DNA of 64,000 nucleotides from an uncultured Muribaculaceae bacterium. GTDB lineage: Bacteria > Bacillota_I > Bacilli_A > RF39 > UBA660. Position numbers and translations under genes: made by a program. Below the pieces are notes generated by a model. That model saw only the letters and a program-made list of their open reading frames with translations. It made no database searches and was not told the DNA's origin. This document shows, piece after piece, positions 14,336 through 64,000 of the stretch (position 1 is the first letter of the stretch; every line of letters starts with the position of its first letter). The stretch covers positions 273,190 through 337,189 of the forward strand of contig CAYNHT010000001.1 in the NCBI GenBank assembly GCA_964397485.1, in the 5' to 3' direction.

Positions 14336-15928
14336 TTATTTACCACTATCACCATAATTTGATAAAACTCTTGCTGATGGATCTTTTATATCATTTCCAA
14401 CCCATTGTTTATTAGGCATCCAAAAATCTTTTATCATATTTGCTCTATTTTTATAATGTTGTTCAAATATATCTCTATACATTAATGATTCTTTGGTAAA
14501 TGGTGGACAATGATAAGCATATTTTTCATTAGCGTTTAAAACATCTTGATCTGTATATAAGGCTTCAGCATGCTCCTTTAAATAATCCACTAATGAGTGC
14601 CCTACTGCATCACTAAAAGCAGCTTTTTCACGCATTAAAATAGATTCTGGTAAGTAATCACCAACAAATGCTTTTCTAAGTAAATATTTGCCTTTATTAT
14701 ACTTGTTAATCTTATGTTTAGGATCAATTCCCATAACATAATCTACAAAAGCTAAATCTCCAAAAGGTACTCTTCCTTCAAGACCATTACTAGATATACA
14801 ACGGTCTGCTCTTAATACATCATACATATATAATTCTCTCACTCTTTTTTCAGCTTCCTTTTGAAACTCTAGTGGGGTTGGTGCAAAATCAGTATACTTA
14901 TATCCAAATATTTCATCACTAACCTCACCTGTCATTAGAACCCTAACATCAGTATTATTACGAATATATTTACATATTAAATACATTCCAATTGATGCTC
15001 TAATAGTTGTAATATCAAAAGTTTCTAATACCCTAATAACTTCATTTAAAGAACCTATTACATCATCTTTATTTATAATTACTTCTGTATGATCACTATC
15101 AATATAATCGGCAACTATTTTAGCGTACTTCAAGTCAATAGCATCAGTCTCCATTCCAACGGCAAATGTCCTTATTTTTTTGTTATGTTTTTTTAAATAG
15201 TCTGCAGCTATTGCACATACTAAACTAGAATCCAGTCCTCCACTTAATAAAAAACCTAACGGAGCATCAGCATCTAATCTTTTTACAACACCATCATATA
15301 ATCTTTTTTGTATTCCTGATGTAATTTCCTCGAGTGATGCATCAATATGTAGACTTGATATTGAAGCATCATGATACTTAATAAATTGTTCCTTATAATA
15401 GTAACTACCTACTGGAAATGGTTGTACTTCATCACATAGTTCTGTCAAGGCTTTAGCTTCACTAGCAAACATTATTTGTTTGTTATTTTTTGAATAACCA
15501 TAAAATAACGGTCTAATTCCTATTGGATCACGTGCCGCTATAATTTCTTTTTCTACATCATCATATAAAACTAAAGCAAATTCTGCATCTAACATTTTAA
15601 ACATGTCAAACCGATACTTCTCATATAATGGCAGCAATACTTCACAATCACTACTAGAATGAAAAGTATATTCATTTAAGTATTTTTCTTTTAAATCACG
15701 ATAGCGATATATTTCACCATTACAAATTATTCTTTTTTTACCTAGTTCAAATGGTTGCATTCCATCTTCACTTAAATCCATAATTGCTAAACGATGAAAT
15801 CCCCATATTCCACTATCATCTTTTACTACTTTAGTCATATCAGGTCCACGGTATTGAATTTTGGAAAATCCTTTCGAAAACTCTTGTTCCGATATTGTTT
15901 TGTCACTACTATACATTATACTACACAT
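14336..15928 (-). CDS. asnB: Asparagine synthetase B (glutamine-hydrolysing).
   Basis: Start 'MCSIMY' with an N-terminal Cys nucleophile. 'LSGGLDSS' PP-loop. RBS 'aaaaggaggaa'. The upstream part of ORF 14336..15967 lacks an RBS. Confidence 0.9.
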   Translation of the reverse strand: MCSIMYSSDKTISEQEFSKGFSKIQYRGPDMTKVVKDDSGIWGFHRLAIMDLSEDGMQPFELGKKRIICNGEIYRYRDLKEKYLNEYTFHSSSDCEVLLPLYEKYRFDMFKMLDAEFALVLYDDVEKEIIAARDPIGIRPLFYGYSKNNKQIMFASEAKALTELCDEVQPFPVGSYYYKEQFIKYHDASISSLHIDASLEEITSGIQKRLYDGVVKRLDADAPLGFLLSGGLDSSLVCAIAADYLKKHNKKIRTFAVGMETDAIDLKYAKIVADYIDSDHTEVIINKDDVIGSLNEVIRVLETFDITTIRASIGMYLICKYIRNNTDVRVLMTGEVSDEIFGYKYTDFAPTPLEFQKEAEKRVRELYMYDVLRADRCISSNGLEGRVPFGDLAFVDYVMGIDPKHKINKYNKGKYLLRKAFVGDYLPESILMREKAAFSDAVGHSLVDYLKEHAEALYTDQDVLNANEKYAYHCPPFTKESLMYRDIFEQHYKNRANMIKDFWMPNKQWVGNDIKDPSARVLSNYGDSGK

Positions 15929-16200
15929 ATTCTTTCCTCCTTTTTTATATAAAAAAACAGTTATCATCCCTATAGGGACGAATAACTGTTATATCCGCGG
16001 TACCACCCAATTTATCATATTACTATGATCACTCTTGACTCAATTAAGTCTAGTATTTGATAACGGATTACAACCCGGCTTAGTCTACTCAGTTTATTTT
16101 CGGTAAGCAACTCAGAAGTGTTATTCATATTATTTTAATTGTTAGTTTTCCACTATCTCTAACTCACTATAAATCAGTCATAATATTACTTCTCTTCTTC
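15929..16200 (-). promoter_or_regulatory. T-box riboswitch leader of asnB.
   Basis: Minus-sense 'AATTGGGTGGTACCGCGG' (plus 15994-16011) is a near-perfect T-box. It is followed by the terminator 'aacagttattcgtccctatagggatgataactgttttttt' and then the RBS. Confidence 0.8.
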
Positions 16201-16205
16201 AATGT

Positions 16206-16234
16206 TCATAATTTAATTATATCATATTTTATGC
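16206..16234 (-). promoter_or_regulatory. Sigma-A promoter of the asnB leader.
   Basis: Minus-sense TTGACA, a 17-nt spacer, then TATAAT. Confidence 0.6.
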
Positions 16235-16343
16235 AATTTGTCAAAATGACATTACAAATGATTACGTATAATGACTAGATAAAAACAAACTATTTTTTTA
16301 CACAAAAAAACCTTTATTACTAAAGGTTCTAATTATTAATTTT

Positions 16344-16419
16344 GGTGACCCGTATGGGATTCGAACCCATGAATGCTGCCGTGAAAGGGCAGTGTGTTAA
16401 GCCGCTTCACCAACGGGCC
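16344..16419 (-). tRNA. tRNA-Glu(TTC).
   Basis: Anticodon loop 'ctttcac' in the reverse complement. The 3' end 'cacca' is encoded. Confidence 0.85.
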
Positions 16420-16429
16420 AAAAATAAAA

Positions 16430-16506
16430 TGGCGCCTCAAGTAGGATTCGAACCTACGACCCCTTGATTAACAGTCAAGTGCTCTAACCGACTGAGCTAT
16501 TGAGGC
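16430..16506 (-). tRNA. tRNA-Asn(GTT).
   Basis: Anticodon loop 'ctgttaa' in the reverse complement. Full cloverleaf. Confidence 0.85.
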
Positions 16507-16515
16507 AATCATAAG

Positions 16516-16592
<77 letters not shown>

Positions 16593-20756: not shown

Positions 20757-20786
20757 AAAAAAGAGAAATTTTTTTCTCTTTTTTTC
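20757..20786. terminator. Bidirectional terminator between the yjcZ-like gene and the giant pilin gene.
   Basis: Hairpin 'aaaaagagaaatttttttctcttttttt'. Confidence 0.65.
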
Positions 20787-23700
20787 TATGGAGATGGTTG
20801 TATTTCATATAGCAATCCAGGGTTACCAAGCCTTCCCATAACATACCTTATATATTTTGTATTTGATGGTATAACTAAGTTTTTTTCATAAGTGGCTCCA
20901 CCACTGTACGAATAATCCTCACTTATTAAGTTTCTATTTACATCTAAAAATTGAATTTGAGTACCATAATTATCCTTAAATTTTACAAATATAGCTGTTC
21001 CTATCATGCTACCATGCACTTCCATAATGGAGTTTTGTTTACTTGAATATGTATTTAAATCATTATCATATGACTCCTTAAGCATTGCATCGGTCACATT
21101 TGAAGTGTAAGCAGGAATAGTTCTTGTTTCATTACCATATTTGTCAATACCTTTTGCATATATCGTTTCATTTTGATTTACTTTTATTGCTTGATTTTGA
21201 TAATTAACCCATGTTCCATCAACACCTATTTTATATAGTTTTTGAACACTTGTTGGAAAGTAATCAATTTTCACCATTTGATATGGATTTCTTATTGCCT
21301 TAGTTGGATCTGCATGTAATAACATATAACCATCTGTTGCACTAAAAGTCGGTTCATCACTTGGAGCTATTTCATACAACATACTTGTTGTTCTATTTAT
21401 AACATAATTTATATATTTGGTTCCTATAGGTATTTCTAAAATATGTTCCCTTGTTGCTCCTCCTGTATAGGTATAATCTTCACTTATCAACTGTTTATTA
21501 CTATTTAGAAATTTAATATATGTTCCATAGTTATCCTTAAACTTAACATATATACTTTTGCCTACCATACTACTATCGACTTCCATAAACGAATTTGATT
21601 TTTGCATATATGTATTTAAATCACCATCATATGCTTCTTTTGTTATAGCATCATTTACTGCTGATGTATATGATGCTATTGTTCTAGTCTCATATCCATA
21701 TTTGTCTCTTCCTTTAGCATAAATCGTTTCTCCATGTTTTACTTTAATTGCTTGATCAGTATAGTTAATCCATTCGCCTTGTTCACCTATTTTATATAAT
21801 CTTTCAACACTTGTTGGGAAAAAATCGATTGATACCATTTGATATGGTTCTTTTATAGCTTTAGTTGGATCAGCATGTAATAACATATATTTACTAACTG
21901 CATTAAAAGTTGGTTCATTACTTGGTTGTATTTCAAATAACCTACTAGAAGTTCTATTAGTGACATATTTTATCTTTTTCGTTCCTTCAGGTATTAATAA
22001 GATATGTTCTCTTGTAGCTCCTCCAGTATGAGTATAATCCTCACTAATTAAATTATCATTGCTGTCTAAAAATTTTATATATGTCCCGTAATCATCTTTA
22101 AATTTAACATATATATAGTTGCCTATCATACTACTATCGACTTCCATAATGGAATTTGATTTTTGCATGAATGTATCCAAATCACCATCATAAACTTGGT
22201 ATGTAATTGCATCTGGAGGCATAGTTACAGACTTACTTACACTAATAGTTAGTCCTGTGTCTTTTTTTACACTTCTGGCAGTTATTGTTCCACTATATAC
22301 ATTTAGTGTTCCTGTATATAAAGTCCATGTCACTCCATTATCTAGACTATATTCATTTCTTATATCATTTCTGTTTTCATAAGTTATCGTTGTCGTTCCA
22401 TCTAGTATAACTCCATAGCTTGCTAATACGGGATATCCGTAACTTGAATTGATTACTGGCGCTTCTGGCATATCTAAATCTAAGTTCACAACTTTTTTGC
22501 TTACCATTTTATCATTACCCGCTGAATCTTTTCCTTTTGCATATATTGTTACTGTCTTATCCTCATTTTCAAATCCATTTTGTAATACCTCGTATGAGGT
22601 TAATGTAATTTCTCCTGTATAACTACTCCACACTAGATTGCTTGCTCCTATTTTATACTCTTTTATAACACTATCTTCATAATCAATATTTATTTTTATT
22701 GTTGTTCCTATTATATTATTCGGTGTTACTACTATATCTATTTCTGGTGGAGTATTATCTATATTAGAAATAGTTATTGTTTTTATTGTTTTATTACCTA
22801 CCATATCTTCTGCATAAACTGTATAAATCCCATTTGCATTTACATTAAAAATACTATTGTTCGCAATCGTGTTTCCGCTATTTTCAAAATAACTTTCACT
22901 TCTATTTCCTTCTGCCCACTTTACCATTCCAACTTCTGTATCATCTGTTACACTTACCTTTATTCCTACACTTCTACTTGGTGTTTCTAAATCAGCATTT
23001 AATTTTATCGTTGGAGCTTCTTCATCTATATTAGTTATTTTTTTCGCCGATTCTTTACTCCACACTTCTTGGGTTGTCATTCCTCTTGCATATATAACAG
23101 TATTTTTTCTATCTATTGTAAATGATTTTGTATATTCTTTCCATCCACTACTATTACCATCTGGATCAACTATTTTATATTCTTTTTTTTCTAAATCATT
23201 TTGATAATTTATACTTACTGTTACTTCTTTGGTTGATTCAGTTGGATTTATTAATATTTGAGGTTGTTGGGGGATTGTTTTATCCCATCTCATATAAATA
23301 TTTTCTATTAATTCATTTAGTGGCACATCAATAAAATAGTAATCACCTGTAAATATTATCTCTTTTCCATTTTCATCTTCTATTTTTATTAATGCTCCAT
23401 CTTCAAACATCTCTGATTTCGTTTCTGGTTTTATTAGCAAAATACCTACTTCTTTATATCCTTTCCATTCTCCTTCTTCCTTAAATTTATATTCTCTATC
23501 AGTTGATTTTGGAGGATATGTTAATCTTAAAATAAAATATTTCCCTTTATCTATTAAATATGTTGGCGGTTCTGGAATGATATTTTCAATTGTATATGTA
23601 CTTTCAGCAATTTCACCAAATTCATTTTCGTTATATGCTCTTATTACTGTTTCGTTTTCAGTTATGACAAACTCACTTACATAATCTCTTAATTGAAAAC

Positions 23701-25789
23701 CATTTATACTATACCTTTTTATAACTGCATTTTTATCAAATTCGATTGTTACTTTTACTTTACTTACATCTCCGGTTGGATCTACTCTAATAATTGGTTC
23801 TGAGATTCCTGTTAATAAATTATCTATCTTTTTTGATGTTTCTCCTTTTCCAGTTGCCGATATGGCATATGCATATATTGTTACATTATCTGTAACATTA
23901 AATTTTCCACTATATTCTTGTAATTCTCCATTTATTCCCAACTTATAATATTTCTTAGTTGCCTTACTATCATAATCTATTGTAACTTCTACACTACTAT
24001 ATCTTTCATTTGATACGAGTGGTTCTGGGATTACATTTATACTTACTTCTAATTTCTCTAGCGGATTTGGGGCTTTTAAGTTTCCTATATTGGTTATATC
24101 CAAATATCTATCTGTTATCCCATTTTCGTTTATGCCTCTTGCATATATTCTACCATTTTCGGTTATTGTTAATTTGCTAGTATATTCTTGATATAATAAC
24201 CCATCTAAACTATATTGTAATGAATCATAGTTTTCTCCACTTATAATTACTTCTACATTATTATCTCCATATCTTCCACTAGACGGATATGGATCAGCAT
24301 TTATTTTTACATATGGTTTATTTCCTTCAACTATATTATCTATTACTCTAAATGCCTTATCCGACCTATATCCATCATATGTTACATAGTATGCATATAT
24401 CTGCATATTTTTTTTAACTATAATTGGTGTTTTATACTCTTGGTAACTTCCATATCTTCCTAATCTTATATATGTTTTTTCTGCTTCTATTGGCGAATTT
24501 ACACTTACTTCTACTTGATCAGTTATTGTTATTGGATCTATTTCTATTACCGGAGCCGGTACCATACTTGCTGGTTTATTATCAAATACATTTCCATTTG
24601 GGTCATAATCACTTGCCTCTATTGCTTCTTCAATGGTTGTATCGTTTATTAGTATTCCCCTTGCTCTACTCCTTTTACCATTTTCATCATAATAATAAGC
24701 AACTATATGAGTACCATATTTTTTTATACTTATTTCTTCTGTATATTCTTGTTCAAATCCATAATTTTCTTTAAATATTTTGGTTGCTGCACCTTCTGGA
24801 TAAGTTACTCTTACCCTCGCTACTTCATTTTCAAGTATGGGGTCTAATCTTTCTATAGTTGGTGCTTCTAAATTTTCTTCTTCTACACCTATATTACTTA
24901 TATATATCATATCTCTTCCCGATATATTTCTCGTCATCAATAAATTACCTGATTGATCATATACATTTTCTTCTTTTGATGCTCTTGCTTCTACTATTAC
25001 TTTTTCACTTACTATAAATGGTCTTATATAGTCCATCCAACCACTATTACCTACTCGGTACTGTTTAATTTCTGCTTCTTCATCATAGTTTATTTTTACA
25101 TTTACACTTGTTGCCATTACCCCAACTGGTTCTGGCGATATATCCACTAGTAGTCTTCCTGCTGGCGGTATTATATATTCTTGGTTATCTAATATATAAC
25201 TTATCCATACATCTTCTATTCTATCAAGGGGCACTAAGATCGGACCAGTATAATTTTGCCACATTAACATTGGATCACTTCTTAATTCGCCTTCTTCGCT
25301 TAATCGCCATTTTCTATTTGTTGCATTATCTGGGTAATATAGTATCAATTGCATCCAACCATTAGCAATTAATTCCTCACCTTTATCAACTATAATTGTA
25401 TTATCTTTACTACATGTTGGACTTATTAAATAACTTTCATATTTATATCCATCAGTTTCTCTTATTACAATTACTTTACTTTCATACTCATCGGCTGGTT
25501 GTTTTGTTTTAGGATCTAATATTGGCTTTATATAACCATTATTTATTAACTCTATTAGTTTAACCTCTTTTAAATCATTTACTTGAACTGGTAAGGTTTC
25601 ATTCTCATCAAAGGTTAAATAATTACTTGCCGCTTCTTCCATACTATGTCGATTGATTTGGCATACTTTTTCATAAACTCTATCCATTGCATCAAAAAAT
25701 ATAAATCTAGTTATTAACATGATTATGGTTATAATTATTATTACTGCAAGAATTTCTACTAGGGCAAACCCCTTTTTCTTTTTTTTCAT
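20786..25789 (-). CDS. Giant (1667 aa) modular type IV pilin-like protein. It has a prepilin N-terminus, multiple Ig-like repeats and a 2.5x repeated C-terminal module.
   Basis: Start 'MKKKKKGF|ALVEILAVIIIITIIMLI' is the class III prepilin leader plus E5 and a hydrophobic helix. RBS 'ggagg'. Repeated ~90-aa units end in 'TIYAxG'. The C-terminal ~190-aa unit is triplicated. Confidence 0.7.
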   Translation of the reverse strand: MKKKKKGFALVEILAVIIIITIIMLITRFIFFDAMDRVYEKVCQINRHSMEEAASNYLTFDENETLPVQVNDLKEVKLIELINNGYIKPILDPKTKQPADEYESKVIVIRETDGYKYESYLISPTCSKDNTIIVDKGEELIANGWMQLILYYPDNATNRKWRLSEEGELRSDPMLMWQNYTGPILVPLDRIEDVWISYILDNQEYIIPPAGRLLVDISPEPVGVMATSVNVKINYDEEAEIKQYRVGNSGWMDYIRPFIVSEKVIVEARASKEENVYDQSGNLLMTRNISGRDMIYISNIGVEEENLEAPTIERLDPILENEVARVRVTYPEGAATKIFKENYGFEQEYTEEISIKKYGTHIVAYYYDENGKRSRARGILINDTTIEEAIEASDYDPNGNVFDNKPASMVPAPVIEIDPITITDQVEVSVNSPIEAEKTYIRLGRYGSYQEYKTPIIVKKNMQIYAYYVTYDGYRSDKAFRVIDNIVEGNKPYVKINADPYPSSGRYGDNNVEVIISGENYDSLQYSLDGLLYQEYTSKLTITENGRIYARGINENGITDRYLDITNIGNLKAPNPLEKLEVSINVIPEPLVSNERYSSVEVTIDYDSKATKKYYKLGINGELQEYSGKFNVTDNVTIYAYAISATGKGETSKKIDNLLTGISEPIIRVDPTGDVSKVKVTIEFDKNAVIKRYSINGFQLRDYVSEFVITENETVIRAYNENEFGEIAESTYTIENIIPEPPTYLIDKGKYFILRLTYPPKSTDREYKFKEEGEWKGYKEVGILLIKPETKSEMFEDGALIKIEDENGKEIIFTGDYYFIDVPLNELIENIYMRWDKTIPQQPQILINPTESTKEVTVSINYQNDLEKKEYKIVDPDGNSSGWKEYTKSFTIDRKNTVIYARGMTTQEVWSKESAKKITNIDEEAPTIKLNADLETPSRSVGIKVSVTDDTEVGMVKWAEGNRSESYFENSGNTIANNSIFNVNANGIYTVYAEDMVGNKTIKTITISNIDNTPPEIDIVVTPNNIIGTTIKINIDYEDSVIKEYKIGASNLVWSSYTGEITLTSYEVLQNGFENEDKTVTIYAKGKDSAGNDKMVSKKVVNLDLDMPEAPVINSSYGYPVLASYGVILDGTTTITYENRNDIRNEYSLDNGVTWTLYTGTLNVYSGTITARSVKKDTGLTISVSKSVTMPPDAITYQVYDGDLDTFMQKSNSIMEVDSSMIGNYIYVKFKDDYGTYIKFLDSNDNLISEDYTHTGGATREHILLIPEGTKKIKYVTNRTSSRLFEIQPSNEPTFNAVSKYMLLHADPTKAIKEPYQMVSIDFFPTSVERLYKIGEQGEWINYTDQAIKVKHGETIYAKGRDKYGYETRTIASYTSAVNDAITKEAYDGDLNTYMQKSNSFMEVDSSMVGKSIYVKFKDNYGTYIKFLNSNKQLISEDYTYTGGATREHILEIPIGTKYINYVINRTTSMLYEIAPSDEPTFSATDGYMLLHADPTKAIRNPYQMVKIDYFPTSVQKLYKIGVDGTWVNYQNQAIKVNQNETIYAKGIDKYGNETRTIPAYTSNVTDAMLKESYDNDLNTYSSKQNSIMEVHGSMIGTAIFVKFKDNYGTQIQFLDVNRNLISEDYSYSGGATYEKNLVIPSNTKYIRYVMGRLGNPGLLYEIQPSP
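20789..22200 (-). repeat. Intragenic tandem repeat (~560-nt period, 2.5 copies) encoding the C-terminal module of the giant pilin.
   Basis: Near-identical nucleotide blocks, e.g. 21240-21370 versus 21800-21930. The protein units begin 'DAITxxxYDGDLxTYMQKSNS'. Confidence 0.65.
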
Positions 25790-25934
25790 ATTTAACCTCC
25801 TCATGTATTTTCTTAATTTCTTCTTATAAAGTATAACATTTTTAACTTTTTCGGTCAATTTATTAAAGCATTTATATTAACACTTTTGTTTGTTGGGAAA
25901 ATTTGGTATAATACTTAACCAAGAGGAGAAATTT

Positions 25935-27068
25935 ATGAAAAAAACATTGAAATTATTTAAAATTATCGTTCTTAGTGTTGTTTTAATAGTATCATCTATG
26001 TTTATACCTAAAACTAAAAATAAAGACGTTGTTAATAACGTTCCCACTATTTCAAAAAATAATATAGAAGAAGATAAAAATACTGAAATTATAACACCTA
26101 TTACTGAACCGGAAGAAATAATTAATATTCCGGTACCAGAAAAAAAACAAATAGTTTTAAGTTTTGTTGGTGATTGTACGCTTGGTACTGATGACAACTT
26201 TGGTTATACAAACACATTTACACATGTGTTTGATAAAAACGATAAAGATTATAGTTATTTTTTTAAAGGTGTAAAAGAAGTTTTAGAAAACGATGATTTA
26301 ACGATTGCTAATTTGGAAACGACTTTTACTAATGCTACTGTAAAAAAAGATAAACAATTCAACTTTAAAGGAGATCCGTCTTATGTTAATATTCTTTTAG
26401 AAGGAAGTGTTGAAGTTGTTAATCTTGCTAATAATCATACTTATGATTATTATGAAAAAGGATATAATGATACTGTTGATGTTCTTAAGAGTGCTAATGT
26501 AGGTTTTTATGGAAATAATGTTTTTTTAGTAGAAGAAGTACAAGGTGTAAAAATTGGATTTGCCGGTTTTAACGGATTTGGTGATATAAAAAGTACTTCT
26601 ACTCAAATTAAAACAGCTTTAGAATATTTTGAAGAAAATAACATTGATATTAAAATTGTATCTTTTCATTGGGGAATTGAAAGAGAAAATTATTTTAATG
26701 AAAAACAACAAACATTAGGAAGGTTTGCAATTGATAATGGAGCTAATCTAGTTATTGGACATCATCCTCATGTTTTACAAGGTATAGAAGAATATAATGG
26801 GAATTATATAGTTTATTCTTTAGGTAATTTTGTATTTGGTGGTAACAGAAATCCTCAAGATAAAGATTCTATGATTTTTCAAAAAATATTTACTTTTGAA
26901 GATAATCAACTAATAGATCAAAAAGTAAATATAATACCTGTTTCTATCTCTTCACAAAAAAACATAAATGATTATCAACCAACATTATTAGAAGATGAAG
27001 AAAAAGTAAAAGTATTAACTCGGATTAATAAATATAGTAAAAATTTCAACTATGAAATTAATGAATAA
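25935..27068 (+). CDS. CapA/PgsA-family metallophosphoesterase-like protein (poly-gamma-glutamate capsule biosynthesis family), secreted or anchored.
   Basis: RBS 'aagaggag'. Signal 'MKKTLKLFKIIVLSVVLIV'. 'VGDCTLGTDD', 'NLANNHTYDY', 'GHHPHVLQGIE' and 'SLGNFVFGG' are CapA motifs. Confidence 0.75.
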   Translation: MKKTLKLFKIIVLSVVLIVSSMFIPKTKNKDVVNNVPTISKNNIEEDKNTEIITPITEPEEIINIPVPEKKQIVLSFVGDCTLGTDDNFGYTNTFTHVFDKNDKDYSYFFKGVKEVLENDDLTIANLETTFTNATVKKDKQFNFKGDPSYVNILLEGSVEVVNLANNHTYDYYEKGYNDTVDVLKSANVGFYGNNVFLVEEVQGVKIGFAGFNGFGDIKSTSTQIKTALEYFEENNIDIKIVSFHWGIERENYFNEKQQTLGRFAIDNGANLVIGHHPHVLQGIEEYNGNYIVYSLGNFVFGGNRNPQDKDSMIFQKIFTFEDNQLIDQKVNIIPVSISSQKNINDYQPTLLEDEEKVKVLTRINKYSKNFNYEINE

Positions 27069-27082
27069 AAAAGCTTTTCAAA

Positions 27083-27325
27083 TTATTTGAAAAGCTTTTT
27101 TATTTTTTTCTTTTTAGTATTTTTTAAAAGATCATAAGATGCGGTTAAAATAAAAACTATTTGCAATACTATAAATACTAGATCACCTAAATATATACTA
27201 TAAAATTCTAAACATATTCCACCAATTATATAAAGTATATCTTGTTTTTTTCTTGTTTTTGTCATAACACCAGTACAAATAAAAATTAATCCAACAGCAC
27301 CAAGTGTTTTATAAATTAATGCCAT
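27083..27325 (-). CDS. Small membrane protein (two TM segments).
   Basis: 80-aa hydrophobic ORF. Confidence 0.35.
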   Translation of the reverse strand: MALIYKTLGAVGLIFICTGVMTKTRKKQDILYIIGGICLEFYSIYLGDLVFIVLQIVFILTASYDLLKNTKKKKIKKLFK

Positions 27326-27402
27326 AAAAATACCTCCAAATTATAAATATATTGTATCATATTTCGACACTGAAAAAACAAAAAACGTAATAATTTAAAA
27401 AA

Positions 27403-27432
27403 TTGACATTATATGACAAAAATTGATATAAT
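27403..27432 (+). promoter_or_regulatory. Sigma-A promoter of the 771-aa pilin-like gene.
   Basis: TTGACA, an 18-nt spacer, then TATAAT, about 30 nt upstream of the RBS 'ataggagg'. Confidence 0.5.
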
Positions 27433-27463
27433 TTAATAGAAAAAATAGGAGGAATATATATAT

Positions 27464-29779
27464 ATGAATGACAAGAAAGGTTTTACCTTGATAGAATTAC
27501 TTGCAGTAATTGTTATATTAGCTATCATTGCACTAATCGCAACTCAATTATTAGCTAATATAATTAAAAAAGCACGAATGGGTGCTTTTGAAAATGACAT
27601 TCGAGCAATAATTAGAACAATCGAATATCAAGAGGTTTTAGACCAAGATTTCAATATTTTTAATATAAATAAAGATACCGTTAAAACAACTCTTAACATG
27701 TCAAATGATAATTATGAATATGTTGAAGTTTCTTTATTAGATGAAGATATATACATTAAGGTTATTGGAAAAAATGAATGGAAAGGTTTGACTGGATACG
27801 GTATAAATAAACAAATGACAGTTAGAGACACTGATGAATTTGATGCCATAACTTGTCAAGTATATGACCCAGGTTTTAGAACAGACTATACTGTAGCAAG
27901 TGCTGTACAAGATTGTATTAATATAACAAATGCTGATGAATTTATGAACATTAAAAATGATTTAGATGGCAAATATTGTATACAAAATAATATCGATTTA
28001 CAAAATGTAAATAATTGGGAAATTATTGCTCCTAATGGTGATCAACCTTTTACTGGAGAAATTTATGGGAATAATTTTCATATTCAAAATTTAAATGTTA
28101 ATCACGATGGTAATTTTTCATTATTTGGTTATATTGAAAATGCTAAATTTCATGATTTACGTTTTAGTAACATGAATATAAATGGTAATGATTCTATTTC
28201 TCTAATAGCTTATCACGCTTCAGGTGACTTAGATATTATTAATTCTAAAATAGAAGATAATAATCGTTTTACAACTAATAACCCTGATGCACTTATTACT
28301 GGGTTTGTAACCCTTAAATATGGTGAAGGTAATTTAAATATTATAAATAGTTATGCAAATGTTAATATATATAACGCTTATTATGCTAGTCCTTTTATAG
28401 GTATGATAGCGCCGGAAACTACTACAACAATTGAAAATTCAACTGCAATTTCCAATTCGAAAAATATAGAAGGCTACTCTACTTCATTTGGTGGATTTGT
28501 TGCACTAAATGAAGGTCCAATTTCGATAATAAATTCTAAAGCTAATATTAAAACAGAAAATGTAACCGGTTATAGTGGTGGCTTTGCTGGAATGTCTTGG
28601 GCCGATACCTACATTGAAAATTCAATGTCTACTTGTGATATTGATGGTTCAAAGTATGCTGGTTGTTTTATTGGATTTGTTGATGATCTTGAAGTTAACA
28701 ACTCGGTTGTATTAAAATCTAAAATCACTGATATTAATGATTATTATGGTGGTATGGTTGGTGCGGTAAGAGAATTTAATCTTACTAGCTCATGTGTCAA
28801 AAATTCAACTATGCGAGGATTACAAAATTCATTAGGTGGTGGCTTTGCTGGAATCGTTTTTGCAAATATTAACTCTGATAAAATTAAAACATTTGGTCTT
28901 AATATGAGTGGTGGCCGTATAGGTGGAATATTTGGAGATGCCCACGCTAATACAAATATGATATTACATCACACAGAGTATATAAAAATGCATAATGCTA
29001 ATGAAAAAGTTGGTAGTATGATAAGTGCTATATATGGTGATTTAACATTAAATAAGGCAAGATTAAATAATATAAGTTTTAATAATATTAATTCCGATGT
29101 TGGTAGTATTGCAGTATCTACTTATGGAAATACCAATTTTAATAACATATCGGTTAATATGGTTGATTACGATAATGTTAATTCAAATGTTGGTGGACTT
29201 GTTGGTTCTACCTTTGGTAATTTTATATTAGAGAATGCAAAAATATATAATGTTAATTTTGATAATACCCAATCACATATCGGTGGTGTTATTGGAGCTA
29301 ACTACTCAAGCGTTACATCATTTAATGATACAACTATAACAGGAGCTATAAAGGCTTCTAATGACAATATAGGTGGTATTATTGGTTATGATGTAGGAAG
29401 TTTTAGTACAATTACTGACACTAAAGTAAATGTTAATATGTCTGGAAGATCTTACATTGGTGGACTTGTTGGATTTTGTACTTCCGATACTAATTTAATT
29501 AATATTGAATTTATCGGAAATATAGCTGGTGAGACACCAAACGATCATTTTGATGGTGGTATTGGTGGAATGTATGGAATGCATGTTTCAACCTTAAGTG
29601 GAAACGGGGCTAAAACAAGTGCTTTTATAACAGCTGGTGAAAATGTCGGTGGAATTGTCGGTGTTAAAACGGAACGTTCTAGTATTACTAATATTGATAA
29701 TTTTACTTTTAATGGAAATATTAATAGTGGTGGAACATATGTGAATAATAAAGTTGGTTTATATTTAGAAGACTTTTAA
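27464..29779 (+). CDS. Large (771 aa) modular type IV pilin-like protein with GLUG-type beta-helix-like repeats.
   Basis: Start 'MNDKKGF|TLIELLAVIVILAIIALIA' is the canonical prepilin N-methylation motif. Repeated 'xIGGxxGxxxGxF' (GLUG-like) units fill the C-terminal 450 aa. Confidence 0.7.
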   Translation: MNDKKGFTLIELLAVIVILAIIALIATQLLANIIKKARMGAFENDIRAIIRTIEYQEVLDQDFNIFNINKDTVKTTLNMSNDNYEYVEVSLLDEDIYIKVIGKNEWKGLTGYGINKQMTVRDTDEFDAITCQVYDPGFRTDYTVASAVQDCINITNADEFMNIKNDLDGKYCIQNNIDLQNVNNWEIIAPNGDQPFTGEIYGNNFHIQNLNVNHDGNFSLFGYIENAKFHDLRFSNMNINGNDSISLIAYHASGDLDIINSKIEDNNRFTTNNPDALITGFVTLKYGEGNLNIINSYANVNIYNAYYASPFIGMIAPETTTTIENSTAISNSKNIEGYSTSFGGFVALNEGPISIINSKANIKTENVTGYSGGFAGMSWADTYIENSMSTCDIDGSKYAGCFIGFVDDLEVNNSVVLKSKITDINDYYGGMVGAVREFNLTSSCVKNSTMRGLQNSLGGGFAGIVFANINSDKIKTFGLNMSGGRIGGIFGDAHANTNMILHHTEYIKMHNANEKVGSMISAIYGDLTLNKARLNNISFNNINSDVGSIAVSTYGNTNFNNISVNMVDYDNVNSNVGGLVGSTFGNFILENAKIYNVNFDNTQSHIGGVIGANYSSVTSFNDTTITGAIKASNDNIGGIIGYDVGSFSTITDTKVNVNMSGRSYIGGLVGFCTSDTNLINIEFIGNIAGETPNDHFDGGIGGMYGMHVSTLSGNGAKTSAFITAGENVGGIVGVKTERSSITNIDNFTFNGNINSGGTYVNNKVGLYLEDF

Positions 29780-29897
29780 AAAATAAAAATACTAGAAAAA
29801 ATTAGTATTTTTTTACATAATTTGGCCAAGTAAATAATCGTTTGTGTAGTCATAAAATCCAATATTTTGGTGATAATATATGACGAGGAGGAAAAAC

Positions 29898-30320
29898 ATG
29901 AAAAGATTATTTATCGATTTATTATTTACAGCAACCATTGTTTTTTTCATTTCCAATGTCAATATTGCGTTTGCACAAGATGATCCGAATGTCAATAATC
30001 CAAATATCAATGATCCAAATAATCAAACAGATAATATTTATGATAATAATACAACAAACGATGAAAATATTATAGACGATGATATAGATGATGATAATAA
30101 TACACCAGATTATAATGATGATACGGATTATAACACAAACCCAAATAATGATTTTAATAACACAGGTGATGTAAACGATATTAATGACAATTTAGAAAAC
30201 GATGAGCTTGTAGATGATGATAACGATGATTTTGTAGAGAATGTAACTTATGGTTTAGGTGGTACTATTTTAGGTAGTGCACTTACTTTTCTACTACTCC
30301 GAAATAGAAGAACTATATAG
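29898..30320 (+). CDS. Secreted acidic Asp/Asn-rich low-complexity protein with a C-terminal hydrophobic anchor and basic tail.
   Basis: RBS 'gaggagg'. Signal peptide 'MKRLFIDLLFTATIVFFISNVNIAFA'. D/N-rich core. C-terminus 'GGTILGSALTFLLLRNRRTI'. Confidence 0.5.
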   Translation: MKRLFIDLLFTATIVFFISNVNIAFAQDDPNVNNPNINDPNNQTDNIYDNNTTNDENIIDDDIDDDNNTPDYNDDTDYNTNPNNDFNNTGDVNDINDNLENDELVDDDNDDFVENVTYGLGGTILGSALTFLLLRNRRTI

Positions 30321-34842: not shown

Positions 34843-35604
34843 TTATACAGGCTGCATTATTCCAAAGAAAACTAACCATGCTAATATAGTTTTAGCAACC
34901 AAACTTAATATAATATATACTCTTTCTCCATATATATAATCTTTCCATTTACCTAATTTCTTATATTGCAATATCATGTTGATTGGAAACAAATTAAAGA
35001 ATATAAAATATGAAATAAATACTGCATAAACAAACCATGGAACTTGTGCTGGATCTGAATTGCCAAATGCATACATTGTTATTACTATCCATGGAATGAT
35101 ACCTGCTATTGACCCATAAACAAATGCAGACCAATTTGTTTTAGTTGTATATTGGTTTATTTTCTCCATCAATAATCCAAAAAGATTCATACTAGCATTT
35201 AATCCAAAAATTAGTATTAAAGCACCAATATCATAAACACCAAATAATACGGCTATTAAAGTTATCATTAATGATGACGATAAAGCATATTCATACCACC
35301 TAAATTTATTTATTCCTTTTTCTAAATCTTTTATATATTTCTTATTACAATAAACTATTATAAAATGAAATAAGGCTGATAAAAGTAAGAATACACTTAC
35401 ACATAAGGCAAATGGTAGCTCAAATAATTCTTTCACATCTGTAACTAATTTCATTGAAGTACTATCAAATTTTAAAAAGTAAGAATAAATAGTTGGTTTA
35501 AAATTCGCAACCTTTTCTACATTTAATGAAACAATAACCATTGCAAGTCCCTGAATCAAATGAAGTATCCCCATAACTAAGTTAAAGTTTTTTAATTTTT
35601 TCAT
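34843..35604 (-). CDS. Hypothetical polytopic membrane protein.
   Basis: 253 aa with about 7 TM segments. Confidence 0.4.
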   Translation of the reverse strand: MKKLKNFNLVMGILHLIQGLAMVIVSLNVEKVANFKPTIYSYFLKFDSTSMKLVTDVKELFELPFALCVSVFLLLSALFHFIIVYCNKKYIKDLEKGINKFRWYEYALSSSLMITLIAVLFGVYDIGALILIFGLNASMNLFGLLMEKINQYTTKTNWSAFVYGSIAGIIPWIVITMYAFGNSDPAQVPWFVYAVFISYFIFFNLFPINMILQYKKLGKWKDYIYGERVYIILSLVAKTILAWLVFFGIMQPV

Positions 35605-38752: not shown

Positions 38753-39709
38753 TTATATCTTTTTAGAATGACTGATAAACCCTTTTAATTCATCATAAGC
38801 TTGCTTGTGTAAAAATCCTTCATTATATAAAATTTTCATTTCTTCTTTTAACAAATCTTTGTTCATTTTTCTGTGTCTCAAATAAACCTCATTTATCAAA
38901 TCGATATTTAGACTATCCTTATCAAATTCTTTTATAAATTGAGTAGTTGTTTCAATAATTACATCTTTACTTTTTTTAAGTCTATCATTATATTTTCTCA
39001 ATAATAACGAATTACTATATTCTAAATTCAATAGTTCATTATATACTCTTTTCTTTTTGGATAAAAAGATAATATATTGTAAATAAGTTAACATTATTAA
39101 ATCACAAAGATTTGAAATAATTTCTGTATCCTTATCATTTAAGTTTACAATATTATCTAAATAACCAGCAATTATAGATAAAATAAATATATTATTATTT
39201 CTATAATATCCACCTAAAAGCATAGCATCCTCAGGACTAGATTCGATTTTAATTAGCAAATCTTTGAGAGGATCTGGGTGTGCTATATTAGTAAAATATT
39301 TATATACTTCTTGCAAAGTATTTGCCTTATCACTTATACTCGGTATTTTATCAAATACATTAATTCCAAAAAATTTTTCTTGATTATTAATAATTTCTTC
39401 TTTGTATTCAGTGAAAAATTTTTCTTCCTGGTAATGATTGTAATGAACAGTTTTCATTAATAATTCCAATGCCTCGCGTGATAGAGTTATTCCACTTGTA
39501 ATATTACCTTTTCCTAACAATCGATTCGATTCTATTATTATCCTTAAGGATGCACTTAAATTTAACTTTAAATAACTATCTATTTCGTTTTCCATAATTA
39601 TTCTAATAAATTCTTTAATTAACAACCTAATGAATTGATTATTCCATAATTTAATTTTACTATTTATAGGTTGCTTTTTAAATTTATATGGTATATTCGT
39701 TTTTTTCAT
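38753..39709 (-). CDS. Hypothetical protein translationally coupled to hsdS.
   Basis: A TAATG overlap joins the hsdS stop to this ATG. 318 aa with no recognisable motif. Confidence 0.5.
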   Translation of the reverse strand: MKKTNIPYKFKKQPINSKIKLWNNQFIRLLIKEFIRIIMENEIDSYLKLNLSASLRIIIESNRLLGKGNITSGITLSREALELLMKTVHYNHYQEEKFFTEYKEEIINNQEKFFGINVFDKIPSISDKANTLQEVYKYFTNIAHPDPLKDLLIKIESSPEDAMLLGGYYRNNNIFILSIIAGYLDNIVNLNDKDTEIISNLCDLIMLTYLQYIIFLSKKKRVYNELLNLEYSNSLLLRKYNDRLKKSKDVIIETTTQFIKEFDKDSLNIDLINEVYLRHRKMNKDLLKEEMKILYNEGFLHKQAYDELKGFISHSKKI

Positions 39710-40896
39710 TAGACAAACATTTGTTGCAGTAACCCTATTTTTAATTGAGTTAAGTTACTAAACAATTCTCTTTCCTTCTCAATTTTGAAATCAATTATTG
39801 ATAAAAATTTAGAGATTCTTTTTTGTTCAGAAATTATTGGAACACTTATTTGTAATAACCCTAAATCTTTAAATGAGAGACTTTGCCTTACACTTCCAAT
39901 TAGATACCTTTTAATGCCTTCCTTAAACGAGTGGGTGTTTGTAAAATAATTTAGAAAATCTGGATCTAAGTTAGTTTTAAATACAGTATACATTGGACTT
40001 AATACTCCATTGTCATATTCCTTAAGTAAAGCAATGGATCCCACATTTATTCTCGAAGGATTATAAGCAAAATTATTCCTGTTAATTATTTTGTAATTAT
40101 TTAAATTTGTGCTAGCTACCCTTTTATCAAAATAGTCACTTTGTAAAATAAATCCCTCTTTATTAGTAACACTTAATATTTGATAATTTTTGTTTTCTTT
40201 ATTTTTTATTGAACATTGAATGATAAATTTTTTTAATTTCCCGTTTTCCCATTCTGGATATTCAATTCCAGCATAATCTTTAAATCTAATCCCTTGACTA
40301 AATACCTTTTGCATCATCCCTTTTTTATATCGTTCTAATTTGCCAATCTTATCTTCTTGTAATTCTATTCTTTTATCTACTAATGACAAGAACATTGCTA
40401 TTTTATTTTGTTCTTCTAAACTAGGGGTTTTTATTTTTAGTTCTTTTAAATGACTGTTGTATAAGTGTATAACTGATATTCCCTGAGACAATTTAGCTAT
40501 TTCATTTCTATATTTATTATTTAGAGAATATGAAAGGAAGAGCCCGTTTTCTTTAGTTTTAATTATGTTAATATCGCCGCCTATTGCAATTTTATCATCA
40601 GTATAAATACACGAAGCAGTTGCCAAATCTACCGCAGTCTCCCCTGATGATGGAATTAATATATCATTTCTCTCAGAAAATATTAATTTATCATCAGACG
40701 TAAAATTATTTACTTCAGTTATTTTTTCTTTATATTTAGTATATAATTCGCCATACCTCACACATTTGAAAGCACCATTTTCAACAACTGATGCTTTAGA
40801 TACTCCTTTTCCTTTTGATAGTTTTGCTATTTCAGAAAGACTTATTTCTTTCCACTCACCACTGAATTCTTTAAATCTTAAACTTGGAGTATTCAT
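39709..40896 (-). CDS. hsdS: Type I restriction-modification specificity subunit.
   Basis: 395 aa with two target-recognition halves separated by conserved coiled regions. Flanked by hsdM. Confidence 0.85.
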   Translation of the reverse strand: MNTPSLRFKEFSGEWKEISLSEIAKLSKGKGVSKASVVENGAFKCVRYGELYTKYKEKITEVNNFTSDDKLIFSERNDILIPSSGETAVDLATASCIYTDDKIAIGGDINIIKTKENGLFLSYSLNNKYRNEIAKLSQGISVIHLYNSHLKELKIKTPSLEEQNKIAMFLSLVDKRIELQEDKIGKLERYKKGMMQKVFSQGIRFKDYAGIEYPEWENGKLKKFIIQCSIKNKENKNYQILSVTNKEGFILQSDYFDKRVASTNLNNYKIINRNNFAYNPSRINVGSIALLKEYDNGVLSPMYTVFKTNLDPDFLNYFTNTHSFKEGIKRYLIGSVRQSLSFKDLGLLQISVPIISEQKRISKFLSIIDFKIEKERELFSNLTQLKIGLLQQMFV

Positions 40897-42458
40897 TATA
40901 ATTCCTCCAAACCTAACTCTTTTAAATATACATTTAATTCTTTAGTGACCTCAACTATATCTTCTTCTATAAATTTAAGTGCACTTTGAACTTGTTTTAT
41001 ATCAATAGGCTCTTCTTCTTCAAAAGTATTTACATATCTTGGAATATTTAAGTTATAATCATTTTCTTTTATTTCATCTATTGAAGCTACATGTGCATAT
41101 TTATCTATATCTTTTCTATTTTTATAAGCATTCAATATTTTTTCTATATTTTCCTCTGTTAAAGTATTTTGATTTCTTTGTTTTTCAAATTCTTTAGAAG
41201 CATCTATAAATAAAATATCAGTATTGGTTTTACACTTTTTAAACACTAAAATAACAGTTGGTATGGCAGCTCCATAAAATAAATTTGATGGTAATCCTAT
41301 TACTGTATCAATATAATTTTTTTCTACAATATATTTTCTTATTACATCTTCCGAAGCACCTCTAAAAAGAACTCCGTGAGGTAACACCACCGCCATAACA
41401 CCTTTATCATCTAAAAGGTATAACATGTGTTGAACAAATGCATAATCAGCTGTAGATTTAGGCGCTAATTTTCCATAAGCACTAAATCGTTCATCATCCA
41501 AAAATTTAGGATCACTACTCCAATTAATGCCAAAAGGCGGATTGGCAACTATTACTTCAAATTTCATATTTAAATGTTTTTCATAAGGGTTAGTTAAAGT
41601 ATTGCCATTGTAAATGTTAAATCTATTAAAAGGCACTCCATGAAGTATCATATTCATTCTTGCTAAGTTGTATGTTGTAGAAGTTAATTCTTGTCCATAA
41701 AAACTTCCTACATTAGCTTCTTTAGCTACTCTTAGCAATAATGATCCTGAACCACATGTTGGATCATATACTTTTTTTATTTTATCTTGATTCATCGTTA
41801 CAATTTTAGCTAATATTTTTGATACCTGTTGAGGAGTATAGAATTCACCTGCTTTTTTACCTGCAGTAGCAGCGAATTTACTAATTAAATATTCATACGC
41901 ATCACCAAGTACATCTATTTCACTATCACTATGATTAAAGTTGATTTCATTAACTTTTAGCATTATTGTAGCTATTAGTTTACTTTTATCTTTTTCACCT
42001 TTACCCAGTTTAGAAGAATGCAAGTCCATATCTTCAAATAAATTTTCAAAATCATCTTGACTTGTTGTACCAAGAACAGATTCATTCAATTCATTAATTG
42101 CCTTTTCTAACATTGAAATATCAAATTTATTTTGCTTAATTAATTCAATTAATGAAGAATATAAATATTGCGGTTGAATAACATATCCAATTTCACTGTT
42201 ATTAAGTAATTGCTCAATTAAAGCATTTCTATATTCTTTCTTTTCCCACGCTGCTTTATAGGAAATACTATCTGATTTTAACAAAGTTTTTTCCACATAA
42301 TAAAGCAAATTTTCTGATAAATATCTGTAGAATATTAAACCAAGAATATAGTTTTTAAAATCACTTGCTTCCATACTGCCTCTTAAACTATTAGCCATAT
42401 CCCAAAGTTTAGCATGTAATTCTTTTTGTTGAACACTCTGTTTTTGATTTGTTGTCAT
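40896..42458 (-). CDS. hsdM: Type I R-M N6-adenine DNA methyltransferase subunit.
   Basis: 'VIVANPPFG' (NPPF catalytic motif) and 'DPTCGSGSLL' (motif I). Confidence 0.9.
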   Translation of the reverse strand: MTTNQKQSVQQKELHAKLWDMANSLRGSMEASDFKNYILGLIFYRYLSENLLYYVEKTLLKSDSISYKAAWEKKEYRNALIEQLLNNSEIGYVIQPQYLYSSLIELIKQNKFDISMLEKAINELNESVLGTTSQDDFENLFEDMDLHSSKLGKGEKDKSKLIATIMLKVNEINFNHSDSEIDVLGDAYEYLISKFAATAGKKAGEFYTPQQVSKILAKIVTMNQDKIKKVYDPTCGSGSLLLRVAKEANVGSFYGQELTSTTYNLARMNMILHGVPFNRFNIYNGNTLTNPYEKHLNMKFEVIVANPPFGINWSSDPKFLDDERFSAYGKLAPKSTADYAFVQHMLYLLDDKGVMAVVLPHGVLFRGASEDVIRKYIVEKNYIDTVIGLPSNLFYGAAIPTVILVFKKCKTNTDILFIDASKEFEKQRNQNTLTEENIEKILNAYKNRKDIDKYAHVASIDEIKENDYNLNIPRYVNTFEEEEPIDIKQVQSALKFIEEDIVEVTKELNVYLKELGLEEL

Positions 42459-59065: not shown

Positions 59066-59141
59066 TGGTGTCCCCAGCAGGACTCGAACCTGCGACAATC
59101 TGATTAAGAGTCAGGAGCTCTACCAACTGAGCTATGGAGAC
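59066..59141 (-). tRNA. tRNA-Lys(CTT).
   Basis: Cloverleaf with anticodon loop 'ctcttaa' and T-arm gcagg/cctgc. CCA is encoded. Confidence 0.85.
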
Positions 59142-59226: not shown

Positions 59227-59236
59227 ATATATTTAA

Positions 59237-63021: not shown

Positions 63022-64000
63022 TTATAAACCTTCACCAACTAGTAAGACTGGTCTAAAAGTATTTCCACTAATAGATCCACCATCACTTATATAATAAGCA
63101 AACACCCCAGCAGAAGTTCCACTAGAATAGCGTCCACCACGGAAAAACCAAGCACCTGTTGAAAATGGCATACGAGATGTATCACCATACCATCCACCTG
63201 TTGTGTTACCTTCCCAAGAACTTCCGTTATAAGTTGCTCCTAAACTAGTTTCATATACAGCATCTCCATAAACACTATCATTATAACCTCGGTTATCTCC
63301 TCCATATCTGTCAATATATTTGTCTAATACTGTTGATGGATCAATACCACTCATTGCTTCATTATTTTCATAATTAGCAAACATTCTTTCACTAGCACCA
63401 CCAACCATATCATATACACCATATACACTACCAGTTGTACTAGTCTTCACACCATTTACTGTATGATATTCATTACAAATAGTTGAGCCAGCCTCAGCTG
63501 CACTATTACCAGCACATCCTGTTATATAATCACTATTTGGATTAATCCAGATTTCTTGTTCATTCATACCGTATATTGATTTAGATAAATATGCAACTGC
63601 TCCCCACTCTGTATTTTTCATCATATGAGTATCAATTTCACTAGCATTCCACCCATATACATCTGTTTTTTCTTTCATATTCATAACAACTTCATAAGCA
63701 TTGCCTGCAGTTATATATTGCCATGATTGAACATTTGGTATTATTTTAACTGTTTTTGTTGTTACGTTGTCACCAACAGTTGCGTTATCAAGACCTTCAA
63801 CTGCAGTTGGTTCAAATTTAGCAACCCATATTCCTGTGACATTATTATCTCCAAATTTAAAGGCAGGATGCGATACATAATTGGTTTGACTATCACCACT
63901 ATATAAAGGAGTTGTTGCTATTGGAACTGCATCTATTGTATTATTTGTTTTATCAATTAAAAATTTAATATTTATTGTTCCGGTTTCACTAGTGTGATAT
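63022..64000 (-). CDS. C-terminal part of a secreted/surface protein with a Gly/Ser/Tyr-rich C-terminus. The frame is open upstream of the first Met to the right window edge.
   Basis: ORF 63022..63684 continues without a stop to position 64000. Confidence 0.4.
   Translation of the reverse strand, partial: YHTSETGTINIKFLIDKTNNTIDAVPIATTPLYSGDSQTNYVSHPAFKFGDNNVTGIWVAKFEPTAVEGLDNATVGDNVTTKTVKIIPNVQSWQYITAGNAYEVVMNMKEKTDVYGWNASEIDTHMMKNTEWGAVAYLSKSIYGMNEQEIWINPNSDYITGCAGNSAAEAGSTICNEYHTVNGVKTSTTGSVYGVYDMVGGASERMFANYENNEAMSGIDPSTVLDKYIDRYGGDNRGYNDSVYGDAVYETSLGATYNGSSWEGNTTGGWYGDTSRMPFSTGAWFFRGGRYSSGTSAGVFAYYISDGGSISGNTFRPVLLVGEGL

Follow-up and report, generated by a model that had tools for sequence, protein, structure and literature searches.

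The locus described here raises the question of how two large proteins that begin like type IV pilins are displayed at the cell surface, and what they present there, when no pilus assembly gene is in view. Their genes, encoding proteins of 1667 and 771 amino acids (aa), lie in a 64,000-nucleotide stretch of DNA from an uncultured Muribaculaceae bacterium (GTDB lineage Bacteria; Bacillota_I; Bacilli_A; RF39; UBA660), which was analyzed as a whole and is called the window below (assembly GCA_964397485.1, contig CAYNHT010000001.1, positions 273,190 to 337,189). An initial annotation made from the sequence alone had placed four open reading frames (ORFs) in this part of the window, and all four are present at the positions it gave: the two pilin-like genes, a gene for a CapA-like protein, and a gene for an acidic protein rich in Asp and Asn (Table 1). 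On balance, and with modest confidence, we read both large proteins as modular type IV pilins that are displayed as adhesins by a type IV filament, probably at its tip. The 1667-aa protein (the giant protein in the following) would be a glycan-binding fibril and the 771-aa protein a beta-helix binder.

Pilin modules at the N-termini

Both proteins carry the class III prepilin signal that had been assigned to them, namely a lysine-rich leader, the motif G↓F(A/T)L(V/I)E (the arrow marks the predicted cleavage site), and a hydrophobic helix, as read by eye and with hidden Markov models (HMMs). The giant protein starts with MKKKKKG↓FALVEILAVIIIITIIMLI and the 771-aa protein with MNDKKG↓FTLIELLAVIVILAIIALIA. 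In each of them, a basic leader extends to the Gly, and a hydrophobic stretch of about 20 residues follows, with Glu at position +5 (Glu5). The scores of the 771-aa protein exceed the curated cut-offs of Pfam N_methyl (PF07963; 34.7 vs. 21.2 bits) and TIGR02532 (32.7 vs. 16.3 bits). The giant protein is borderline, since it just meets the cut-off of TIGR02532 (16.4 vs. 16.3 bits) and just misses that of N_methyl (20.9 vs. 21.2 bits). Its assignment to the pilin fold is supported at the family level: a profile of 29 giant homologues matches the whole chain of the Streptococcus sanguinis major pilin PilE1 (8pfb_G, E = 2.4e-8), and the further matches of this profile are exclusively pilins and pseudopilins.

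The AlphaFold2 model of the 771-aa protein (predicted local distance difference test, pLDDT, 85.9 overall) shows an alpha1 helix of 50 residues (9–59) and a four-stranded sheet (84–122). With a pLDDT of about 70–86 in this part, the protein is predicted to contain a pilin fold composed of the alpha1 helix and a small antiparallel sheet. The N-terminal segment alpha1N is identical over 22 residues in the 771-aa protein, a 538-aa protein encoded at the right end of the window, and a short pilin of 145 aa from the same genome; the 538-aa and 771-aa proteins agree in alpha1N save for the last aligned residue. Modular pilins have been defined as proteins in which a pilin module is combined with at least one module that is not pilus-specific (Raynaud et al., 2021), and both proteins are modular pilins in this sense.

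Modules grafted onto the pilin modules

Behind its pilin module, the giant protein consists of a stalk and a distal head. The repeats of the stalk were defined by self-comparison and iterated HMM tiling (residues about 124/209–1195; later HMM rounds may over-extend). The immunoglobulin (Ig)-like repeats reported in the initial annotation are real, but their number, given there as about eight of ~90 aa, is higher, with 11–13 in the stalk and two in the C-terminal region, each of ~85 aa. No significant Pfam match was obtained for the stalk region, and five segments of the giant body, searched against Pfam at E ≤ 1, gave nothing meaningful either. The most conserved, family-specific region comprises residues 144–420, in which many aromatic residues are invariant across 29 homologues; residues 140–420 match only 262 of 1.84 billion cluster representatives.

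The triplication of the C-terminal module, which had been recognized before, was recovered with a period of 187 aa in three copies that are up to 86% identical. One C-terminal unit, modelled together with 48 homologous units, reached a pLDDT of 93.9, and Foldseek searches with this model returned jelly-roll plus Ig pairs of glycoside hydrolases and also lectins. The head is predicted to have the galactose-binding-like jelly-roll fold of carbohydrate-binding module (CBM) family 32 and F5/F8 type C domains. A conserved start (A-[YF]-D-G-[ND]-x-x-T) and end ([LI]-[YF]-E-[IV]) are found on each head module, which presumably fit the discoidin signature. F5_F8_type_C or CBM32 Pfam labels (precomputed or faint matches) occur on some giant homologues.

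For the 771-aa protein, the GLUG-like beta-helix repeats proposed earlier are borne out by the structure prediction, which shows a regular beta-solenoid. The lectin or adhesin folds that the initial annotation had envisaged thus have a counterpart in the models of both proteins, a lectin/CBM-like fold for the unit of the giant protein and a beta-helix for the 771-aa protein. The top Foldseek matches of the latter are the beta-helices of IgA1 proteases (3n6z, 7uvl, and 6xja), followed by adhesin and tailspike beta-helices, and the Pfam matches to GLUG and Peptidase_M26_N are sub-threshold (M26_N 22.8 vs. 27.7 bits). The HExxH motif of the M26 catalytic domain (Peptidase_M26_C) is absent from the 771-aa sequence. 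A protease function was rejected for this reason, and the protein is best read as a putative binding beta-helix.

Family members, anchors, and pilus genes

An identical 1667-aa protein is encoded on seven public contigs, and 63 homologues of 948–2488 aa share 32–52% identity with it. Among the GTDB species-representative genomes, in which the best match has 54% identity, the family is confined to uncultured metagenome-assembled genomes (MAGs) from guts, digesters, and sediments, which bear varying labels (Bacillota, Clostridia, Bacilli, Mollicutes, Tenericutes, "Firmicutes CAG:582"). Some MAGs contain more than 10 giant copies, often at contig ends. The body of the homologues is conserved from residue ~144 onwards, and the N-terminus varies. 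A canonical G↓FTLIE anchor is present in 14–15 of the 63 homologues, a Glu5-less one, G↓I(S/T)LI(V/A)L(V/I)IT, in ~27, and an ordinary transmembrane anchor in ~18; ~3 are fragments. The expectation that orthologues conserve the N-terminal motif therefore holds for many of them and fails for those whose pilin N-terminus lacks Glu5 or whose anchor is a plain transmembrane segment. The transmembrane-anchored homologues form a more distant group, in which the anchor sometimes follows a cytoplasmic domain.

In our view, the distribution of the anchors among lineages is the strongest evidence obtained here for a match between the pilin module and the pilus system of the host. In each of 16 MAGs, the giant paralogues observed have one type of N-terminus only, canonical (GFTLIE) or Glu5-less (G↓I(S/T)LI(V/A)L), without mixing, and Glu5 is kept in every canonical-type member. 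The Glu5-less giant N-terminus is almost identical over ~35 residues to the short pilin of the pilin-pilD-pilB-pilT-pilC operon of the same lineage (locus L082). Because only one pilin type occurs per MAG and the N-terminus is nearly identical to that of the operon's short pilin, the pilin module appears, as far as sequences can tell, to be matched to the pilus system of its host rather than to be a generic anchor.

Pilus genes were searched for in the related loci using phmmer with E. coli HofB, HofC, GspE, GspF, and GspO. In one relative (L075), pilB-pilT-pilC lie 5 kb from a giant paralogue, and in another (L009), pilC-pilD lie 7 kb from one. The contexts of the short pilins of four homologues yielded only T2SSF genes near the short pilin of a third relative (L166). 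Operons with Glu5-less short pilins (K-G↓I-S/T-L-I-V/A-L-V-I-T) were seen in three loci (Table 1). The PilB of this operon class has an atypical Walker A motif, APTGEGKTT, and the operon of L082 is located directly 3' of the spoIIIA sporulation operon.

The two proteins are part of a larger repertoire. Four modular pilin genes are found within about 84 kb (window plus flanks), and at least five pilin-module genes are dispersed in this genome. The third modular pilin is the 538-aa protein mentioned above, whose C-terminal module resembles FGE-sulfatase, as judged only by eye and by analogy to the PF03781 label of a homologue. The fourth (1271 aa) is encoded ~5 kb left of the window; it starts with MKRERKQYQG↓FTLIEVL and has N_methyl and weak GLUG matches. 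Close to a thousand proteins share the pilin N-terminus fused to diverse domains.

Several further observations concern these pilin genes. At ~370 kb from the window, a single TAA in frame (GAT TAA ACA) closes the ORF of the same-genome 145-aa pilin. Past this stop, the reading frame stays open for a further 384-aa module, whose type is that found at the C-terminus of the intact 538-aa pilin. A diverged relative (150 + 381 aa) is interrupted by TAA-ACA at the same point of its linker. Programmed readthrough, a pseudogene common to both, or a conserved division into two genes could each account for this. In a syntenic relative with a ThrRS of 74% identity, thrS and the SpoIIIAH-like gene are separated by two genes for short pilins (145 and 144 aa); the window has no more than a 165-bp spacer at this site. 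About 1.7 kb left of the window lies the gene for a Bact_surface_Ig-like protein of 784 aa, whose signal sequence is of the ordinary type. In four loci from three lineages, giant-family genes are flanked by two small membrane-anchored, beta-rich proteins (~140 and ~200 aa), which belong to no recognized family save for one sub-threshold DUF1425 match and are absent beside the giant gene of the window.

Proposed display by a pilus and alternative explanations

In the model favored here, the class III signal would insert each protein into the membrane with the N-terminus inside and the C-terminus outside, a PilD-type prepilin peptidase would cut after the Gly, and alpha1N with its Glu5 would dock the subunit into a pilus of short pilins that have almost the same helix, assembled by machinery presumably encoded in this genome. 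The large subunits would most likely be located at the pilus tip because of their bulk. There, the giant protein would project a stalk of ~13 Ig/FN3-like domains, roughly 45–55 nm in length, ending in three CBM32-like modules for multivalent glycan binding, and the 771-aa protein would present its GLUG-type beta-helix as a binding surface. A number of observations weigh against this model. The first 140 residues of the giant protein alone match PDB pilins weakly (E = 0.2–0.8), in line with the borderline HMM scores, and no Pfam CBM model (PF00754 / PF18344) matches the protein even at E ≤ 1, glycan binding being predicted from the fold. As already stated in the initial annotation for the part then in view, pilus assembly genes are missing: no PilB, PilC, PilD, or PilT gene was found in the 64-kb window, in the 10 kb past either end (~84 kb in total), or in the 20 kb around the same-genome short pilin (P0197). 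Hardly any related locus has pilus genes linked to a giant gene, and the two cases of linkage (L075 and L009) could be due to chance, given MAGs with more than 10 giant copies. Moreover, ~18 of the 63 homologues combine this body with a plain transmembrane anchor, which argues that the body works without a pilus, and a stalk as long as that of the giant protein could by itself extend from the membrane through a Gram-positive wall.

The latter points are shared by an explanation that we regard as possible but doubtful, in which the class III signal serves membrane insertion only, with or without cleavage by PilD, and the proteins are free-standing fibrillar adhesins held by alpha1N and reaching through the wall. 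Archaeal sugar-binding proteins with pilin-type signals resemble this arrangement. A prepilin has the same topology as a bitopic protein with the N-terminus inside and the C-terminus outside, a stalk of the estimated length would be sufficient to span the wall, and the genes lie dispersed between housekeeping genes, with no machinery anywhere near them. However, a mere anchor could dispense with Glu5, the role of which in pili is assembly rather than cleavage, and yet this residue is kept in every canonical-type member. The correspondence between anchor type and the pilin type of the lineage's pilus operon also argues against it, as does the identity of alpha1N with that of the same-genome short pilin. 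A different filament, the competence (Com) pseudopilus, would be expected if the giant module were ComGC/GspG-like and the genome held only comG/comC. NCBIfam pilin_ComGC matches giant residues 5–76 with E = 1.8e-4 and GspG with E = 0.005, and the placement of the two Cys, judged by eye, is reminiscent of ComGC, but the ComGC score is far below the cut-off (21.7 vs. 75 bits), PilE1-type pilins come nearest both to the family profile and to the modules found in the 771-aa and 538-aa proteins, and relatives encode PilT, which accompanies retractile pili; this makes a Com pseudopilus improbable. Very improbable, finally, is that the locus is one functional unit in which the CapA-like enzyme and the acidic secreted protein act together with the pilins, for instance in making or binding a polyglutamate-like capsule. 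The functional link suggested in the initial annotation has only physical adjacency and the divergent arrangement in its favor. The two large genes are preceded by separate promoter-like sites, the CapA-like gene is set off from what lies behind it by a terminator-like hairpin, and no capB or capC was found among the gene products of the window (Pfam labels for ~17 to 39 kb, the rest read as translations), which leaves the CapA-like gene without the partners of a CapBCA poly-gamma-glutamate capsule system there. Neither gene is a conserved neighbor in ~73 related loci: CapA-like matches occur in only three of them (24–26% identity), and the acidic protein has no homologue in any, nor does the 80-aa membrane protein. 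The giant and 771-aa pilins themselves never co-occur in the other related loci. The CapA-like protein is probably not part of the pilin system.

Apart from display of these two proteins by a pilus, a wider role of the module may be proposed very tentatively for these small-genome uncultured Bacillota. The pilin module might have become a general, interchangeable anchor for surface display, to which many rapidly evolving giant adhesins and enzyme-like modules are attached. PilD alone or the whole pilus machinery would then take the part that sortase and LPXTG have in other Gram-positive bacteria, and one adhesin body might have been moved among canonical pilin, Glu5-less pilin, and plain transmembrane anchors.

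Comparison with known modular pilins and adhesins

The earlier statement that modular pilins are known from only a few Gram-positive pili was too narrow. More than 1,200 of them in 264 architectures have been catalogued, including IPR012902-IPR011493 (N_methyl-GLUG), and the longest has 860 aa (Raynaud et al., 2021; PMC8179133). Because this architecture is already listed, the 771-aa protein is a new member of it, with exactly the same arrangement. The principle of a pilin carrier to which an effector module is grafted is also that of S. sanguinis PilB, which carries a vWA module instead of the GLUG beta-helix. For the N_methyl-GLUG type, a peptidase function was predicted from its association with M26 (PMC8179133); in contrast, the 771-aa protein has the M26-N/GLUG beta-helix only and neither HExxH nor a catalytic domain. 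The best structural match of its residues ~150–700 is to the beta-helix domain, with GLUG motifs, of the IgA1 metalloproteases of S. pneumoniae and Gemella (M26; 6xja, 7uvl, and 7uvk) and to BACOVA_03286 (3n6z; Bacteroides fragment). Unlike the IgA1 proteases, it has no protease domain and no LPXTG or signal-peptide-type export, and its pilin module is N-terminal.

The giant protein is most likely a size-extreme, stalked variant of the known modular-pilin design, with about twice the size reported so far. Its designation as an extreme case is justified with respect to the longest catalogued protein, but it is not unique, as homologues with pilin N-termini reach 2,233 aa. A literature search on MAG-encoded pilins that are giant or carry a CBM returned nothing specific. 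To our knowledge, only small modular pilins (about 50 kDa) have been studied so far. The closest studied analogue is S. sanguinis PilC, in which a pilin module is combined with an Ig-like fold and a lectin; it binds glycans and has been modelled at the pilus tip (PMC9934059). PilC, whose host is monoderm, and the giant protein have in common a canonical class III signal including Glu5, a small pilin module, one or more Ig-like modules, and a terminal carbohydrate-binding(-like) module. PilC is a protein of about 53 kDa that has a single Ig-like fold and a single lectin of the ConA type, and its gene is located inside the pil operon, whereas the giant protein has about 185 kDa, ~13 Ig/FN3-like domains, and three CBM32-like modules, there are no pil genes nearby, and both its display and its binding are predicted. 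In addition, the giant family is multi-copy, with interchangeable anchors.

With Gram-positive fibrillar adhesins, the giant protein shares an anchor, a long beta-sandwich stalk, terminal binding modules, and many paralogues per genome. Its anchor, however, is a type IV pilin module at the N-terminus in place of an LPXTG sortase signal at the C-terminus; as a consequence, the polarity is reversed and the adhesive end of the giant protein is at the C-terminus. Many giant-family members lack Glu5, as do tip pilins of the GspK/PilK class and S. sanguinis PilA, whereas both window proteins keep it. Since the short pilin of the operon is also Glu5-less in the lineages concerned, this trait marks the whole system rather than a tip position.

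Modular pilins explain the gain of many functions by simple pili. If a 185-kDa subunit with a stalk of ~50 nm and three sugar-binding heads is carried by a pilus, the questions arise of how large a cargo the machinery and the wall can take and how a tip for which several such subunits compete is organized. As a natural experiment, the family, with one body on pilin and non-pilin anchors, could also help to tell apart what the pilus contributes and what the adhesin does. Reduced-genome uncultured Bacillota of guts and digesters may attach to glycans or partner cells by means of such proteins.

Gene organization and further features of the window

The GC content of the whole window is 27%, indicating a very AT-rich bacterium. 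Its housekeeping genes are an ordinary Bacillota set (thrS, dnaB/dnaI-type replication, yebC, ddl, murF, and SpoIIIAH-, GerE-, and GerM-like genes). Genetic code 4 was rejected for this genome because the ORFs are long under translation table 11. For the giant gene, an alternative TTG start would extend the product to 1690 aa (reaching position 25858). This reading was ruled out because the Shine–Dalgarno sequence precedes the ATG, and the AGGAGG 6 nt upstream of the latter makes 1667 aa the likely length of the product. With separate promoter-like sites, each with AGGAGG, and the hairpin behind the CapA-like gene, the giant and 771-aa genes appear to be transcribed independently; they form no operon with the CapA-like or the acidic-protein gene.

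Table 1. Features of the window and of flanking or related loci (L numbers), with positions, strand, and remarks
Feature	Position	Strand	Remarks
Spacer at the site of short pilin genes in L165	4243-4408		
Asparagine-synthetase-like gene	14336-15967		
T-box leader	15971-16211	-	123.6 bits; 5' of the asparagine-synthetase-like gene
tRNA-Glu/Asn/Ile cluster	16343-16592		
Giant modular pilin-like protein gene	20786..25789	-	1667-aa ORF from ATG; stop codon 20786-20788
Giant protein, distal head	20789..22216	-	residues 1192-1667; three CBM32/discoidin-like jelly-rolls (1192-1293, 1379-1480, 1566-1667) separated by two FN3-like domains (1294-1378, 1481-1565)
Giant protein, stalk	22217..25369	-	residues about 141-1191; 11-13 tandem Ig/FN3-like beta-sandwich domains, ~85 aa each
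Giant protein, pilin module	25370..25789	-	residues 1-140; leader MKKKKKG, G↓FALVE with Glu5, hydrophobic alpha1N, Cys 43 and 126
Giant gene, expression signals	25796..25858	-	promoter-like TTGACC-17-TATACT (25858-25830) and AGGAGG (25801-25796); consensus matches only
CapA-like (PGA_cap) membrane-anchored protein gene	25935..27068	+	Pfam PGA_cap E = 1e-53; divergent from giant gene
Terminator-like hairpin	27063..27105	.	bidirectional; between the CapA-like gene and the convergent 80-aa gene
80-aa membrane-protein gene	27083-27325	-	convergent with CapA-like gene
771-aa gene, expression signals	27403..27452	+	perfect TTGACA-18-TATAAT, extended TG (27403-27432) and AGGAGG (27447-27452)
771-aa modular pilin gene	27464..29779	+	ORF; N_methyl E = 1.2e-8
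771-aa protein, pilin module	27464-27853	+	residues 1 to ~130, then linker
771-aa protein, GLUG/Peptidase_M26_N-type beta-helix	27911-29734	+	residues about 150-757; AlphaFold2 beta-solenoid, pLDDT above 90
Acidic D/N-rich protein gene	29880..30320	+	146-aa ORF; signal-like N-terminal helix and hydrophobic C-terminal tail
Heliorhodopsin gene	34843-35604	-	PF18761
Probable integrated island	~37400-59313		
hsdS	39709-40896		island
hsdM	40896-42458		island
hsdR	43210-45963		island
Tyrosine integrase gene	56147-57280		island
tRNA-Lys and tRNA-Val	59066-59313		adjoin the island
Third modular pilin gene (538 aa, P0114), 3' part	63022..64000	-	runs off right end of window; TIGR02532 33.1 bits
784-aa Bact_surface_Ig-like protein gene	L162 12672-15026		left flank
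Fourth modular pilin gene (1271 aa)	L162 15978-19793		left flank
145-aa pilin ORF and 384-aa module	L077 10001-11626		same genome
150 + 381 aa split ORF	L079 10001-11635		diverged relative
Two short pilin genes (145 and 144 aa)	L165 9341-10435		syntenic relative
Pilus operons with Glu5-less short pilins	L082 7791-14124; L083 7473-9836; L075 484-4604		
Small-protein pairs beside giant genes	L004 15332-16422; L005 15720-16824; L006 8960-9972; L009 8332-9375		

The acidic protein belongs to no Pfam or NCBIfam family, and a DUF2726 gene of the window has no counterpart in the ~73 related loci. The probable integrated island comprises a type I restriction–modification system, several orphan genes, an AAA_25 ATPase gene, and a tyrosine integrase gene, and it is adjoined by two tRNA genes. 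It is located at about 37–59 kb, more than 7 kb from the giant and 771-aa genes. A phage tail-fibre origin of the two large proteins was rejected, as there is one sub-threshold Pfam match only and the genes are without prophage-type neighbors. Elsewhere in the window, a T-box leader precedes an asparagine-synthetase-like gene, with a cluster of tRNA genes close by, and a heliorhodopsin gene is present in this MAG of a small-genome, AT-rich member of the Bacillota.

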